A DNA stretch of 64,000 nt from NCBI GenBank assembly GCA_034428435.1, contig DAOUHY010000265.1:16408-80407 (forward strand), given 5' to 3'. This stretch comes from Caldilineaceae bacterium. GTDB lineage: Bacteria > Chloroflexota > Anaerolineae > Caldilineales > Caldilineaceae. Numbering within the stretch: position 1 is the first letter of the stretch; each line of letters opens with the position of its first letter. A program made the translations under genes and the position numbers. Below, in pieces: positions 8,069 to 61,974 of the stretch. Under the pieces are notes generated by a model, which did no database searches, was not told where the DNA came from, and saw only the letters and a program-made list of their open reading frames with translations.

Positions 8069-8196
8069 GTTGCGCTCCTCGCATTCGCTTCCAGTTCAAT
8101 TGTCGACTTTTCGCCAGAATTGAAGGGCGAACAGCCATCTCATTGGACCTGCATCGGATAGAGGTCGGGGGGATTGGGGACAGATCGCTTTTTGGG

Positions 8197-8632
8197 GGTG
8201 CATCGCTGATTTGGAGTGGGAACAGTCAGGCGGGGAATCGGTGCCAGCGGTGGCGGGGGAATCGTTTACAGGCTTTTGGAGAAACGCAGGGCAGGCACGA
8301 GGGTGAGGAGAGAGTGGAGAGGAGCGAGGAGAGAGTGCCGCAGTGTAGTCTGCGGGGGACTGGCGGGACGTGGTTTGGCTGGACACTTTCGATTTGGCAC
8401 TCGTTACGAATAGCGACACCAGGTCGGCGAGGCATGTTGTAGGAGAGGGGGCGTTGCGGGGGCGGAGCCCCCGCACAAGGGAGGGCCGACTAGGCCCGAC
8501 CGCCCAGAAATGCAGTGGTCAGTAGTCAGTGGTCAGAGACGGCGCTCTGGCTGCCTCAGATTTGATCGCGGAGCGGCCATGGTTAGGTCTCTGCCAGAGG
8601 ATTGCGTTAGCTCACCCCCATTTTGGGATGCA
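8197..8632 (+). mobile_element. MITE-like non-autonomous element, copy A
   Basis: Imperfect terminal inverted repeats: 5' GGTGCATCGCTGATTTGG and 3' CCCCATTTTGGGATGCA. It is flanked by the identical 11-mer CGCTTTTTGGG at 8186-8196 and 8633-8643. It shares a 73-nt core (8434-8506) and most of its other sequence with copies at 36616-37079 and 61042-61499. No credible ORF. Confidence 0.7.
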
Positions 8633-8650
8633 CGCTTTTTGGGCAACCGT

Positions 8651-8679
8651 TTGCTCACGTCCCCCGATTGTGATAGCAT
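8651..8679 (+). promoter_or_regulatory. Predicted sigma70-like promoter (TTGCTC-17-TAGCAT)
   Basis: Hexamers at 8651-8656 and 8674-8679 with a 17-nt spacer. The -35 box starts after an 18-nt gap from the MITE copy A end, upstream of the zinc-ribbon/M42 genes. Pattern match only. Confidence 0.3.
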
Positions 8680-8720: not shown

Positions 8721-8933
8721 ATGTCCGACTGCACCGAATGCGGAACCTGGAATCCCGACGATAAGGAAGTTTGCTGGCGCTGCCAGGCCGTATTGCCGAG
8801 ACCGGTGGAGAACAAGCCGAAGCGCCGCCTGATGATACTGGGCATGCCGGTCTGGGTGTGGATTGTGGTTGGGTTGATCTTTGTCCTTCCTCTCTTTGGC
8901 CAGTGCGCGCAGCTTGGAGTCCCCGCCGGATAG
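8721..8933 (+). CDS. Small zinc-ribbon membrane protein
   Basis: MSDCTECGTWNPDDKEVCWRC (CxxC...CxxC) followed by one TM helix (LMILGMPVWVWIVVGLIFVLPLF). GGGGAAG lies upstream of the ATG at 8721. The TAG stop overlaps the next gene's GTG (TAGTG). Confidence 0.55.
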   Translation: MSDCTECGTWNPDDKEVCWRCQAVLPRPVENKPKRRLMILGMPVWVWIVVGLIFVLPLFGQCAQLGVPAG

Positions 8934-10015
8934 TGAACAGCGACGATAAGTCTTCGGAATCGGACAGCTTTTCTCTGTTAAAGGAGTTGAGCGAGACGCC
9001 TGGCGTCAGCGGCCAGGAAGACCGGATTCGCGCGCGTGTCAGCGACCATCTGGCCCTGCTGGTTGATGAACTGCACACAGACACTCTCGGTAATCTGACT
9101 GGTCTTAAGCGCGGTAGCGATTCGTCCGGCAGGCGGGTGATGGTGGCGGCGCACATGGATGAGATCGGCCTGATCGTTACCCGATTGGAGGAGGGCTTTG
9201 TGCGCTTTGCGCCGGTTGGCGGCGTAGACCTGGGGGCATTGCCGGCTCAGGAGGTAACGGTTCACGGCCGCTCTGATCTGCCGGGGCTGATCGCCAGCCG
9301 GCCGCCCCACGTTCTCTCCCAGGAGGAGCGGGGAAAACCTTTTGCCCAAGCTGATCTTTTCATAGACGTCGGTCTGGCCGCGGACAGGCTGGCAGAGTTC
9401 GTCTCCGTTGGGGATTTCATTTCCGTCCGCCAAAGTGCAGACAGGTTGGGTAACGGGCAGGCTACCGGCAAAGCCTTCGACAATCGCGTGTCGGTTGTCG
9501 TTCTGCTGCAGGCGCTGCGCATTCTGCAGGGACGCAGCCACGCTTGGGACATTTTCGCCGTGGTCACGGTGCAGGAGGAGATCGGTCTGCGCGGGGCCAA
9601 GACGGCCGCTTTTCGGGTAGCGCCGGATGTGGGGATCGCTCTCGACGTGACCTACGCGGAGCAGCCGGGCGCGACCCCTGAAGAGTCGCTTGCGATGGGA
9701 AGCGGACCGGCCATTGGGCTGGGGCCGAACCTGCATCCCGTTTTAAGAAAGCTGCTCGTCGACACGGCCGAGCGCGACGAGATTCCCTATACGAACGAGG
9801 TTCTGCCTGGAAATTCAGGGACCGACGCCTGGGCGATGCAGGTCTCGCAGTCCGGCATTCCTACTGCGCTGATTTCGGTACCGATCCGCAACATGCACAC
9901 GCCTGCGGAAACGGTCGCGCTCAAGGACATTGAACGGAGCGCGCGGCTGCTGGCTGAGACTATCTGCGAACTACCGGACGACCTGAACGCTCTGGCGCTC
10001 GACGGCGAGGCTTAG
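8933..10015 (+). CDS. M42 family metallopeptidase (FrvX/TET-like aminopeptidase), paralog 1
   Basis: LLKELSETPGVSGQEDRIR, AAHMDEIGLIV and VQEEIGLRGA. The track ORF starts at 8771, but family alignment and overlap with the upstream gene favour the GTG at 8933. Confidence 0.88.
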   Translation: MNSDDKSSESDSFSLLKELSETPGVSGQEDRIRARVSDHLALLVDELHTDTLGNLTGLKRGSDSSGRRVMVAAHMDEIGLIVTRLEEGFVRFAPVGGVDLGALPAQEVTVHGRSDLPGLIASRPPHVLSQEERGKPFAQADLFIDVGLAADRLAEFVSVGDFISVRQSADRLGNGQATGKAFDNRVSVVVLLQALRILQGRSHAWDIFAVVTVQEEIGLRGAKTAAFRVAPDVGIALDVTYAEQPGATPEESLAMGSGPAIGLGPNLHPVLRKLLVDTAERDEIPYTNEVLPGNSGTDAWAMQVSQSGIPTALISVPIRNMHTPAETVALKDIERSARLLAETICELPDDLNALALDGEA

Positions 10016-36207: not shown

Positions 36208-36615
36208 GTGGTACTCCTGAACTCCTTTCCTTTTGGACCAGAGAATCCCGAATGCGCTGTCCAATTGTAACCATTCTCTGGAGGGCCGCCTGTTGCGTTG
36301 AGAGAGCCAAATCATCGCTGGAATACCTTGGCGCATGATCCAGCCGGTACTGAATCAGTTTAGCACATGAGCAGACGACTCCCAAACTTTCGCCGTCATG
36401 TCACTATACGTAGAACCTCGTTATGGGGTCGCGTCAGGGCCTTGAGAATCCGAAGTCGCAACAGAATGCTGGGTAGATTCCGGGTGCAGAGACATGGCTC
36501 AACAGTTATCCAAGGTTCTTTTTCGGACGCGGATTCAAGAGATTGACTGGATGGGAATACGACTGGGAGACCACGGCAAGGCGCCAGGAGAATTGACGGG
36601 GCATTGCCGTGGTGT

Positions 36616-37079
36616 AAGGTGCATCCCTGATTTGGGGAGGGAACGGCCTGGCGGGGAATCAGTGCCAGCGGCGGCTGGCGTTGTATAGCGTCTTTGGGCG
36701 AGACGCAGTGCAGGCGCCGGGCCCGGCCGTACGGTGGCGTCCGTCAGTTGGGGAGGGTGCGAGGGCAGGCACATGGCCGGCACCTACGGGGATCTGATGG
36801 GACTGGCGGGACGTGGTCGGGCTGGACACCTTCGATTAGGCACCTGTTACGAACATCGACACCAGGTCGACCAGGGATGTTGTAGGAGAGGGGGCGTTGC
36901 GGGGGCGGAGCCCCCGCACAAGGGAGGGCCGACTAGGCCCGACCGCCCAAAGGCGAGGAGAGAGGGGAGAGGAGTGAGGAGAGAGACGCCGTTTCTTTTG
37001 CCTCAGAGTTGATCGCGGGGTGGCAATGGTTGGTCTGCCGCCAAAAGTATACGAGTGTTCGCCCCTATTTTGGGATGCA
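36616..37079 (+). mobile_element. MITE-like non-autonomous element, copy B
   Basis: Same family as 8197-8632. Ends are AAGGTGCATCCCTGATTTGGGG and CCCCTATTTTGGGATGCA. It is flanked by GCCGTGGTGT at 36606-36615 and 37080-37089. The 73-nt core at 36877-36949 is identical to copy A. Confidence 0.7.
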
Positions 37080-37096
37080 GCCGTGGTGTCGACCTC

Positions 37097-37125
37097 TTGA
37101 AAACAGAATTGGCTGCCCTTATAAT
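37097..37125 (+). promoter_or_regulatory. Predicted sigma70-like promoter (TTGAAA-17-TATAAT)
   Basis: Hexamers at 37097-37102 and 37120-37125. The -35 box starts after a 17-nt gap from the MITE copy B end, about 210 nt upstream of queG. Pattern match only. Confidence 0.4.
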
Positions 37126-37336
37126 GGGCCTGACTTGCTGAACGGTTACTCTGCCTACTTCAAGAGTGCAAGCGGAATCACATTCTCTAACAGTTGTGCC
37201 GGCACTGGCTCTCATGCATCAGGACGGAGTCAGATTGAGGCCGGCTGGGTAGAGAGATGCCGAGCCAAGAGTTGGGTTTGCGCGCCGTTTGATTGGCGTG
37301 AACGGAGAAGACATTCATTGACTGTGTTCCAAAAAG

Positions 37337-38740
37337 GTGTCCATGAGGTCTGACCACAGCTTAACCGCATTGTTAAAGTCCGAAGCGGGACGCTTAGGTT
37401 TCGACTTCTGTCGAATCGTCAAGGTGGATGAAGCGGCGCATGCGGAGTTTTTTGTCCGCTGGCTCGGGCTGGGCCGGGCCGGGGAAATGGCGTACCTGGC
37501 TCGAAATCTACAGAAAAGGCGTAATCCGGCCCTGCTGGCCGAGGAGGGCCCGCCCTTTCGATCGCTTGTCGTGCTGGGCGTTGACTATCATCGCTTCGAT
37601 CTGGCGCCGGAGGTTTTGAGCGACAGGTCGCGCGGCATCATCGCCCGCTATGCCTGGGGGGAGGACTATCACGAGATAATTCGTCCGCTGCTGTATGAAC
37701 TGGATGGCTGGTTGCGAGTCCGGACAGGCCGCTCGACTTTGGGGAAAGGGCTGGTTGATACAGGTCCGGTACTGGAAAGGGACTGGGCGCAACAGGCCGG
37801 CATAGGCTTTACCGGAAAAAACTGCTGTACGATTCACCCAGCGAGGGGAAGCTGGGTCTTTCTGGCAACGCTCCTGGTGCCGGAGGCGCTGGCCAGCGAC
37901 CCGCCTGTGGAAGCGGTTCGCTCGGCAGACTTGAGTGTGGAGGAGACACTTGCGGGCCTACCGGCCGGGGGCGATTACGGGGCGTGGCAGCTGCAAGAGA
38001 ACAGCTGCGTGCCGCCTGTGAATCGTGAGAGCAGTGCTCTCGAATTCGAGGCGGATGCGCGTGCGTCTTCGCCGGTCACTTGCGGTCACTGTACACGATG
38101 CCTGGATGCCTGCCCCACCGATGCCTTTGCAGGCCCGTTTCACCTGGATCCCCAGCGCTGTATATCCTACTGGACGATTGAATCGCGCCAGCCGATTCCG
38201 CGACCGCTGCGGGGCATGTTCGGTAACCGGATTTTCGGGTGCGACATCTGCCAGGAGGTATGTCCCTGGAATCAACGGCTAGCAGAGAGGACGCCTCTGC
38301 TGAAAGGGCTGGAGGCTCAACAGGCGCGCGTCGCGCCGCCGCTGCTGGAGGGTTTCGATCGACGCCTGCCTTACTGGCTTGAGCCTGGCGCTTTCGCCGA
38401 GCGTTGGCGGCGGTCGCCGCTTAAGCGGGCAAAGCGGGCAGGGATGCTGCGCAATGTCTGCATTGCCCTCGGAAACTGGGGCGACACGGCGGCCTTTGCA
38501 GGATTGGAAGCAGCTGCGGCCGACGAATCGGCGCTGGCGCGAGGACACGCGGCCTGGGGGCTGGGTGAACTGCTGCGCCGGCACAACGATGCTCGGGCCG
38601 CGTCCTGTCTTGAATCCCAGCTTGCCGACGAAGCAGATTCGTGGGTAAGGGAGGAGATTGCCATCGCGCTCGGGCGCGGGAATGAAACTTTAGCCGCGAG
38701 CAGGCGTAGAGATGAATATAGCCGAACTGCCGGACACTGA
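37337..38740 (+). CDS. queG: tRNA epoxyqueuosine(34) reductase QueG with C-terminal HEAT-like repeats
   Basis: GIGFTGKNCCTIHPARGSWVFLATLL, and ferredoxin motifs CGHCTRCLDACPTDA and CDICQEVCPWN. The start is the GTG at 37337 or the ATG at 37343. Confidence 0.92.
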   Translation: MSMRSDHSLTALLKSEAGRLGFDFCRIVKVDEAAHAEFFVRWLGLGRAGEMAYLARNLQKRRNPALLAEEGPPFRSLVVLGVDYHRFDLAPEVLSDRSRGIIARYAWGEDYHEIIRPLLYELDGWLRVRTGRSTLGKGLVDTGPVLERDWAQQAGIGFTGKNCCTIHPARGSWVFLATLLVPEALASDPPVEAVRSADLSVEETLAGLPAGGDYGAWQLQENSCVPPVNRESSALEFEADARASSPVTCGHCTRCLDACPTDAFAGPFHLDPQRCISYWTIESRQPIPRPLRGMFGNRIFGCDICQEVCPWNQRLAERTPLLKGLEAQQARVAPPLLEGFDRRLPYWLEPGAFAERWRRSPLKRAKRAGMLRNVCIALGNWGDTAAFAGLEAAAADESALARGHAAWGLGELLRRHNDARAASCLESQLADEADSWVREEIAIALGRGNETLAASRRRDEYSRTAGH

Positions 38741-60475: not shown

Positions 60476-60832
60476 CTACTGCCACTCCAGGGCGCCCTTG
60501 CGCCAGTCGTACATGAGTCCAATCACGAGCAGGAGAACAAAGAAGATTGTCGCGAACACTGCAAACATTTCCAATTGCTGGTATGCAACCGCAATTGGAA
60601 AAAGGAACAGGGCTTCAACATCGAACACGACGAAGACCAACCCAATCAGGTAGTACTGAGCTCGGAATTGCACCCAAGTCTCGCCAATGGTTTCGACGCC
60701 GCTCTCGTATATATCGTTCTTGATCTCATCGGGCCGGCGGGGACCAAGGAAGTTGCCCAGCACAATGGCGGCGAGAGGCAAAACGACCGCCAAGCCGGAC
60801 ATAACCAGTATGAAGAAATATTGACTGAGCAT
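60476..60832 (-). CDS. nuoA: NADH-quinone oxidoreductase subunit A (copy 1)
   Basis: 118 aa from MLSQYFFILV. YESGVETIG, FDVEALFLFP and C-terminal YDWRKGALEW. The track ORF over-extends to 60922. Confidence 0.9.
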   Translation of the reverse strand: MLSQYFFILVMSGLAVVLPLAAIVLGNFLGPRRPDEIKNDIYESGVETIGETWVQFRAQYYLIGLVFVVFDVEALFLFPIAVAYQQLEMFAVFATIFFVLLLVIGLMYDWRKGALEWQ

Positions 60833-61041
60833 TGCCGAAAATCCGTTTGTGTGGAATTTAACAAACTCCCGCGAAAGTATAGCATAGCGATTTCTGATAG
60901 CGAAAGTTCGTACCCTTCGCAAACGCGTTCAAAGTGGAGGCGATGACTACATATTCGAGGGATTCGATAGGATAGGGGCGGGGCTGCTGAAAAGATCCTT
61001 CGATGCGACCCGTCAGCATGCTTGTTGAAGTCAATCGATAC

Positions 61042-61499
61042 GGGTGCATCCCAGATTTGGGGTGGGAACAGTCTGGCAGGGAATCAGTGCCAGCGGTGGC
61101 CGGGGTTGTTTGCCGTCTTTGGGCGAGGCGCAGTGCAGGCGCCAGCCCTGGCCGTACGATGGCGTCCGTCAGTTGGGGCGGGTGCGAGGGCAGGCACCTA
61201 CGGGGAATTGATAGGGACGGCGGAACGTGGTCTGGCGAAGCCCGGTCGAACAGGCACTTATCGCCAATGTCGACACCCGGTCGATAAGGCATGTTGTAGG
61301 AGAGGGGGCGTTGCGGGGGCGGAGCCCCCGCACAAGGGAGGGCCGAATAGGCCCGACCGCCCAGAACTGCAGCAGTTAGTAGTCAGTAGTTAGTGGTCAG
61401 AGACGGCGCTCATTCTGGCGGAAACTGGAATGGGAACTGACCATGGGTTGGGTGCCTCCAGAGATATACGAAAGTTCGCCCCAATATTGGGATGCAGAC
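61042..61499 (+). mobile_element. MITE-like non-autonomous element, copy C
   Basis: Same family. The 5' end is GGGTGCATCCCAGATTTGGGG and the 3' end is CCCCAATATTGGGATGCA(GAC). It is flanked by ATCGATAC at 61034-61041 and 61500-61507. The core at 61291-61363 differs from A and B at one loop position. Confidence 0.65.
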
Positions 61500-61516
61500 A
61501 TCGATACCGACGGGCT

Positions 61517-61546
61517 TTGACAGGAGATTTTGGTTCGTGCTAGAAT
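61517..61546 (+). promoter_or_regulatory. Predicted sigma70-like promoter (TTGACA-18-TAGAAT)
   Basis: Hexamers at 61517-61522 and 61541-61546. The -35 box starts after a 17-nt gap from the MITE copy C end, about 70 nt upstream of the plus-strand nuoA. Confidence 0.45.
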
Positions 61547-61617: not shown

Positions 61618-61974
61618 ATGGCAAGCGACTATCTGCCACTTCTCATACTGATCCTGCTGGCGGCCGGATTCGGCGTAATTGCCATAGGTCTGCCTTCACT
61701 GTTAGGTCCACGAGAGCGCAACAGTCAGAAGTTGGAGCCATACGAATCGGGGATCATCCCCTTTGCCGACGCCCGTCGACGATTCCCGGTGAAATACTAT
61801 CTGGTTGCCATGCTCTTTCTGATCTTCGACATCGAAGTAATCTTCCTCTACCCGTGGGCGGCCGTCTTGAGAGACCTTCGCCTGTTTGCCCTATTGGCGA
61901 TGATTCCCTTTTTCATTGTACTCGTGGTAGGTTTCCTCTATGAATGGAAGAAGGGCGCTCTCGATTGGGACTAG
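61618..61974 (+). CDS. nuoA: NADH-quinone oxidoreductase subunit A (copy 2)
   Basis: YESGIIPF, FDIEVIFLYPW and YEWKKGALDW. It is only distantly similar to copy 1. Confidence 0.92.
   Translation: MASDYLPLLILILLAAGFGVIAIGLPSLLGPRERNSQKLEPYESGIIPFADARRRFPVKYYLVAMLFLIFDIEVIFLYPWAAVLRDLRLFALLAMIPFFIVLVVGFLYEWKKGALDWD

Follow-up and report, generated by a model that had tools for sequence, protein, structure and literature searches.

The three repeats in the window (the whole 64,000-nt stretch of DNA analysed here) belong to one MITE that, with a probability of about 0.9 in our estimate, is moved in trans by a DDE transposase of the ISKra4 family (p-MULT 4, prokaryotic Mutator-like) and targeted to host promoters. 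Mobilisation by the transposase of autonomous insertion sequences (ISs) is indicated by the termini and the target specificity that they share with the MITE. The promoters are predicted ones that probably fire, as supported by their conservation and by the orientation of the genes beside them.

Three copies of one MITE in the window

The window repeats proved to be three copies of a MITE of 440-470 bp, which aligned with ~80% identity over ~440-470 nt and differed by indels that were not multiples of three (Table 1). The element has inverted ends (GGGTGCATCCC...GGGATGCACCC). Its 5' start is (G)GGTGCATCCC, and its 3' end is GGGATGCA followed by a 3-nt triplet, which is CCC in most genomic copies and another sequence in each window copy. 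A terminal CCC was present at 85-90% of MITE ends genome-wide. The features that define a MITE were all observed: small size, lack of coding capacity, multiple copies, inverted repeats, target duplication and termini common to an autonomous element. An Rfam scan of the window returned no family match, so the MITE does not correspond to any known RNA element.

The window's own genome is a Caldilineaceae MAG of 4.70 Mb in 477 contigs with 59.7% GC. It was found to contain hundreds of copies and fragments of the MITE, with more than 100 ends of each kind (right, R, and left, L). The GC-rich double-hairpin core of the element (window 36877-36949) also occurs at ~100 other places in this genome, detected as BLAST matches to positions 269-376 of copy B. 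Alone or within other repeats, this core is far commoner than the full element, and at 90-100% it is conserved much above the rest of the MITE.

In the 56 complete copies, the target duplication directly outside GGG...CCC had a mode of 8 bp, followed by 9 bp. An exact flanking repeat of at least 5 nt was kept in 30 of these copies, compared with 1/56 when the partners were shuffled. At copy B, the preliminary description had noted an exact 10-mer at 36606-36615 and 37080-37089. The duplicated octamer sits between the MITE terminus and the -35 box, with a further 7-8 nt to the -35 genome-wide. The distance of about 7 nt first proposed for the window copies was roughly reproduced, being 7 (A), 6 (B) and 9 (C) nt when measured.

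Table 1. MITE copies, target duplications and predicted promoters in the window
Feature	Position	Strand	Details
MITE copy A	8196-8635	+	440 bp; left inverted repeat starts GGGTGCATCG; right end ...GGGATGCA then CGC
Target duplication of A, right copy	8636-8643	.	TTTTTGGG; left copy 8189-8196; 11 bp if the CGC triplet is counted
Promoter A (predicted)	8651-8679	+	TTGCTC 8651-8656; 17-nt spacer; TAGCAT 8674-8679; TG 8671-8672; 10.2 bits
MITE copy B	36617-37082	+	466 bp; left inverted repeat AGGTGCATCCC; right end ...GGGATGCA then GCC
Target duplication of B, right copy	37083-37090	.	GTGGTGTC; left copy 36609-36616; 7/8 match
Promoter B (predicted)	37097-37125	+	TTGAAA 37097-37102; 17-nt spacer; TATAAT 37120-37125; 11/12 match; 19.7 bits
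MITE copy C	61042-61499	+	458 bp; left inverted repeat GGGTGCATCCC; right end ...GGGATGCA (61496) then GAC
Target duplication of C, right copy	61500-61507	.	ATCGATAC; 8 bp; left copy 61034-61041
Promoter C (predicted)	61517-61546	+	TTGACA 61517-61522; 18-nt spacer; TAGAAT 61541-61546, preceded by TG-n; 11/12 match; 18.2 bits

Predicted promoters beside the three copies

All three -35/-10 hexamer pairs that had been described next to the copies were found at their positions, with spacers of 17, 17 and 18 nt. Promoter A has a weak -35 and an extended -10 (TG-n-TAGCAT), was missed by a 9-of-12 consensus scan and is predicted to serve an M42-peptidase-like gene (ORF 8771-10015). Just 3' of it, an ATG at 8722 opens a Cys-rich (CxxC...CxxC) frame (window 8722-8850) which differs from the frame of the M42-peptidase ORF starting at 8771; the start of this gene is provisional. 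Predicted promoter B lies upstream of a gene for a QueG-like Fe-S reductase (37337-38740) and was the sole site found by the consensus scan in its region. A leader of ~205 nt (window 37132-37336) separates its predicted start from the QueG-like gene, and Rfam gave no family match for this leader. Predicted promoter C, upstream of nuoA (61618-61974), was the sole strong site in its region, where a 9-of-12 site was also located at 60858-60885. Copy C is flanked by two divergent nuoA paralogues, both matching Pfam Oxidored_q4 (60476-60922 on the minus strand and 61618-61974 on the plus strand), and this pairing suggests two complex I operons arranged head to head. No promoter was scored by log-odds at the left end of any of the three copies.

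The gaps of 17-18 nt originally given between element end and -35 box had not been taken from equivalent points, because the end of copy C (61499) had been set 3 nt past ...GGGATGCA (61496), while the ends used for A and B stopped at GCA. Measured from the true terminus, which includes the 3-nt triplet (consensus CCC), the -35 box is 15 nt away in A, 14 nt in B and 17 nt in C.

Conservation of the promoters at occupied and empty sites

Each of the three window promoters was looked up in the remaining 35 genomes of the genus. Promoter B was kept in all 11 orthologous loci displayed, including the empty sites of two genomes (G022 and G043) in which a continuous intergenic region without the element aligns with the reconstructed empty site B. 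For promoter A, the weak -35, the TG-extended -10 and the spacing between them were kept in every one of the 29 relatives displayed, making 30 genomes when the window's own is included. About half of these relatives are without the element at this promoter and have the target octamer TTTTTGGG once. On this comparison promoter A is judged to be real despite its low score. Promoter C was likewise kept in all 29 relatives displayed, with an invariant -35 hexamer and a nearly invariant -10 region, and ~19 of the 29 are without the element there.

Other elements were observed at the same promoters. In one relative (G045), a full autonomous IS is present at the nuoA promoter that copy C occupies in the window. 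In another (G005), the -35 of promoter C is preceded at 14 nt by an IS-like terminus, as against 17 nt in the window, on a contig that ends within 100 nt. In three further genomes (G021, G015 and G041), promoter A or C is occupied by an element that resembles the MITE in its type of terminus but has no internal similarity to it. These elements, L141 (G021), L178 (G015) and L183 (G041), have termini of the form …CTGGACTGCAC and …GGTATGC, and their interiors resemble neither the MITE nor either IS. Several unrelated MITE families seem to use one transposase. The element at promoter A in G021 had been considered as an inverted copy of the same MITE; BLAST detected no internal similarity, and from its sequence it is regarded as a distinct element whose terminus is of the same type.

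Genome-wide spacing between MITE ends and promoters

A total of 218 MITE ends with usable flanks (113 R and 105 L) were scored in the window's own genome. A promoter was called where the log-odds score reached at least 10 bits with the -35 starting 16-21 nt after GCA (six positions), equivalent to 13-18 nt past the terminus. Scores of at least 10 bits occur at 0.035% of random genome positions and at ~0.2% of other offsets of the MITE flanks. A strong sigma-70-type promoter was called at 97/218 ends (56/113 R and 41/105 L), most often with 15-16 nt to the -35. The number expected is ~3 in all from other offsets of the same flanks (~1.3 for R and ~1.6 for L) and ~0.5 from random genome positions. 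The distance bias that the preliminary description had proposed to check over the genomic copies is thus present, and the copies are not randomly placed relative to promoters. The hexamers by themselves gave a similar picture: TTGACA-like sequences (at least 5/6) peaked at offsets 18-19 after GCA and TATAAT-like sequences at 41-42, with about one such hexamer per position at other offsets.

Among the 56 complete copies, a promoter was found at the R end only in 25, at the L end only in 20, at both ends in 1 and at neither in 10, so that 45/56 have a promoter at exactly one end. Overall, 82% of complete copies and 45% of MITE ends adjoin a promoter, the threshold used for the ISKra4 group being >20% at 13-17 bp. 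A co-oriented long ORF was present 3' of 69/87 promoter-facing ends versus 59/114 other ends (p=6e-5). Apart from the promoter boxes, no conserved position was detected in the flanks of the genome-wide ends, in agreement with the earlier statement that the flanks of the window copies share no other similarity. The common orientation of the window copies relative to their downstream genes did not extend to the genome, where either end faces the promoter at an R:L ratio of ~1:1 (Fisher p=0.13 for ends; binomial p=0.55 for complete copies). The same orientation of the three window copies is the luck of three.

The anchor analysis was restricted to strict, unambiguous promoters (n=56), of which few had spacers other than 17 nt (4 and 7). 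For spacers of 16, 17 and 18 nt, the -35 began on average 18.5, 18.4 and 18.6 nt after GCA (r=-0.13, p=0.34), while the distance to the -10 moved with the spacer (40.5, 41.4 and 42.6 nt). Since the -35 distance is constant while the -10 distance shifts, these data suggest that the landmark for insertion is the -35 element, or whatever binds there, rather than the -10 box. A negative correlation of the -35 distance with spacer length, obtained with PWM-best calls, was judged to be an artefact of ambiguous -35 assignment because it was gone with strict, unique promoter calls.

Candidate autonomous partners of the ISKra4 family

Candidate partner ISs of ~1.45 kb with termini common to the MITE were found in Caldilineaceae genomes. 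Type 1 (1,458 bp) was found in complete genomes of the genus; G022 has 14 copies and G019 has 4, one of the latter scoring below the cut-off. Its termini are GGGTGCATCCCAGATTT... and ...TTTGGGATGCACCC, and it is flanked by 8-bp duplications. Type 2 (1,451 bp) was found in G050, G005 and G015. The termini of type 1 and the MITE are identical over 17 nt. For type 2, which also occurs at contig ends of the window's own genome, the right end is identical to that of the MITE over ~25 nt (TTCGCCCCAATATTGGGATGCACCC) and is end-specific, and the left end follows the CAGATTGGGG pattern. No internal similarity between the MITE and the ISs was detected.

The larger transposase frame, orfB (344 aa), scored 233.6 bits on NF033572 (ISKra4 family transposase; cut-off 205), and orfA (122 aa, zinc ribbon) matched the N-terminus of the same model (positions 13-101). 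Pfam found no domain in orfB. On the ISLre2 model NF033529, the next best and far behind, the partner transposase scored 79.9 bits, below the cut-off of 200, which places it outside ISLre2/TnGBS (p-MULT 3). In every IS copy examined, the transposase was split into two overlapping frames, the zinc-ribbon orfA and the catalytic orfB; examples are L021:1308-2655 (G019) and L125:1544-2871 on the minus strand (G050). The overlap falls at a G/T/C homopolymer, GGG-T7-C5 in type 2, which needs a -1 shift, and GGGGA-T5-C5 in type 1, which needs a +1 shift. As all multi-copy members share the two-frame layout, programmed frameshifting or transcriptional slippage is likely, and transposase activity would need one or the other because the protein is split in two frames.

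The spacing of the ISs was determined for 38 distinct copies, drawn from a number of Caldilineaceae and Anaerolineae MAGs. In 31 of them (82%), a promoter scoring at least 10 bits was present at 15-16 nt; it adjoined only the right repeat in 16 copies, only the left repeat in 13 and both ends in two. The -35 was exactly 15 nt from the IS terminus in 25/33 promoters scored. Insertion with either side facing the promoter, as is known for the ISKra4 group with its near-symmetric repeats, was therefore observed for both the MITE (25 R and 20 L) and the ISs.

In the window's own genome, neither an autonomous copy with both termini nor an intact transposase gene was assembled, and only contig-end fragments were found. 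The NF033572 profile search detected the last ~26 codons at four contig ends, and five more contig ends hold the ~129-nt ends of a second IS, of type 1. In at least nine contigs, the assembly stopped ~128 nt into one or other of two ISKra4-type ISs (C19:1-128, C300:1-128, C437:2-129, C149:9051-9177, and also C111, C267, C26, C257 and C121). The fragmentation of this genome into 477 contigs is due in large part to the ISs, and probably to the MITEs as well.

Comparison with known systems

Guerillot et al. 2014 (PMC3942029) showed that members of the ISKra4 group (p-MULT 4) and of TnGBS/ISLre2 (p-MULT 3) place themselves 13-17 bp upstream of a sigma-A promoter. According to the same study, such elements have 8-9 bp direct repeats and a terminal base C, and those of the ISKra4 group whose repeats are near-symmetric insert either way round (PMC3942029). 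Among the entries of its Table S1, ISAcce1 starts with GGGTGCA and ISCasp2 with GGGTGCG (PMC3942029). The ISKra4-group ISs (ISKra2/4/5/6, ISCasp2/3 and ISAcce1 among others) resemble the elements described here in their match to NF033572, their GGGTGCA... termini, their 8-9 bp repeats, their distance of 13-17 bp to a sigma-A -35 and their insertion in both orientations. The MITE repeats (GGGTGCATCCCnnATTnGGGG / ...GGGATGCACCC) agree with the 18-39 bp inverted repeats and conserved terminal C of the ISKra4 family, and so do its 8-9 bp duplications, those of the IS copies being 8 bp. All family-level features of ISKra4 that could be tested were found.

There are two differences. Unlike the known ISs, the window elements are non-coding MITEs of ~450 bp which far outnumber the ISs (>100 versus a handful), and the partner ISs have their transposase in two overlapping frames, a layout given for the ISMich2 group and not for the ISKra4 group (PMC3942029). 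The ISKra4 group, separate in phylogeny from ISMich2 and ISAzba1, has as its signature a transposase motif with a conserved Asp between domains N1 and N2 (Fig. 8 of PMC3942029). From the sequences compared, the assignment to ISKra4 holds at the level of the family, within which the elements may belong to the ISKra4 or to the ISMich2 group. A literature search found no publication on MITEs of the ISKra4 family.

TnGBS/ISLre2 elements are similar in having a Mutator-like DDE transposase and inserting 15-17 bp upstream of sigma-A promoters, but they are elements of Firmicutes with asymmetric repeats and, because of that asymmetry, insert in a single orientation. Classical MITEs (Correia/NEMIS, RUP, Nezha and ERIC) are also small, non-coding, high-copy elements with inverted repeats and target duplications that are moved in trans; they differ in not aiming at a fixed distance from a -35. 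The yeast element Ty3, with which an analogy is drawn in PMC3942029, integrates at Pol III start sites via TFIIIB and so also uses the transcription machinery or promoter as its landmark. Ty3 is a eukaryotic retrotransposon with an unrelated enzyme, and the likeness is an analogy only. Promoter specificity is already published for the ISKra4 group, and the present case is a well-documented new example of it, not a new principle.

Proposed mechanism and alternatives

We propose that the transposase, once bound to the nearly symmetric inverted repeats at the two ends, takes hold of target DNA at promoters of the housekeeping (sigma-A / sigma-70) type. A staggered cut would then generate the 8-9 bp duplication and leave the MITE terminus 15-16 bp upstream of the -35, with the duplicated octamer covering about -52 to -44. 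As the two ends are alike, either could face the promoter, and the landmark would appear to be the -35 element or the sigma factor bound to it, not the -10. Against a strict promoter rule, no promoter could be recognised on either side of 10/56 complete copies.

The preliminary description had allowed for either promoter-proximal target choice or the retention of insertions that supply an upstream regulatory module. Target choice was upheld by the spacing, the IS partner and the empty sites, and retention of a module was not needed to account for the data. If insertion were random and copies were retained only upstream of promoters, where the element would act as an upstream module (activator site, UP-like tract or insulator), one could understand why promoters A, B and C keep orthologous copies across several species and why the GC-rich hairpin core is so strongly conserved. 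We nevertheless consider this very unlikely, since selection would not yield a spacing precise to +/-1 nt, the promoter may be faced by either end, and neutral intergenic insertions should survive too, whereas a promoter adjoins 82% of complete copies. Also against the retention of a regulatory module, the autonomous IS, with a wholly different interior, has the same spacing, and unrelated elements with the same termini are found at the same sites. Target choice is favoured over selective retention because independent insertions hit the same promoters.

A further explanation would make the -35 and -10 boxes part of the element, as an outward-facing promoter at its ends. Outward promoters are common in insertion sequences and the boxes do lie at a fixed distance from the end, but the 8-bp target duplication separates the terminus from the -35, each locus has a sequence of its own between and around the boxes, and in each copy the promoter is at one end only. 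This explanation, to which we give hardly any weight, is refuted by the relatives whose empty sites keep the promoter without the element. The promoters are host sequence, as originally stated. That hexamers picked by eye matched by chance in three copies, which the weak boxes of copy A and the 3-nt shift of the end of copy C might have encouraged one to believe, is refuted by the 97/218 ends genome-wide versus ~3 expected, and its probability is close to nil.

The MITE might also have a function of its own. The hairpin of the MITE is strongly conserved and GC-rich, lies ~100-250 bp upstream of >100 housekeeping promoters and is kept at orthologous sites across species. It is conceivable, although we think it improbable, that the double hairpin has been co-opted as an insulator or terminator shielding the targeted promoters from read-through arriving from upstream or from divergent transcription.

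Implications

The large sample of MITE ends provides a small mechanistic hint, namely that the insertion distance is set by the -35 rather than by the -10. For Caldilineaceae genomics, these elements break short-read assemblies. The finding extends the published specificity of the ISKra4 group to MITE derivatives. With each insertion giving the place of a probable sigma-A promoter to the nearest nucleotide, the ~100 copies per genome amount to a free promoter map for an uncultured lineage of the Chloroflexota.
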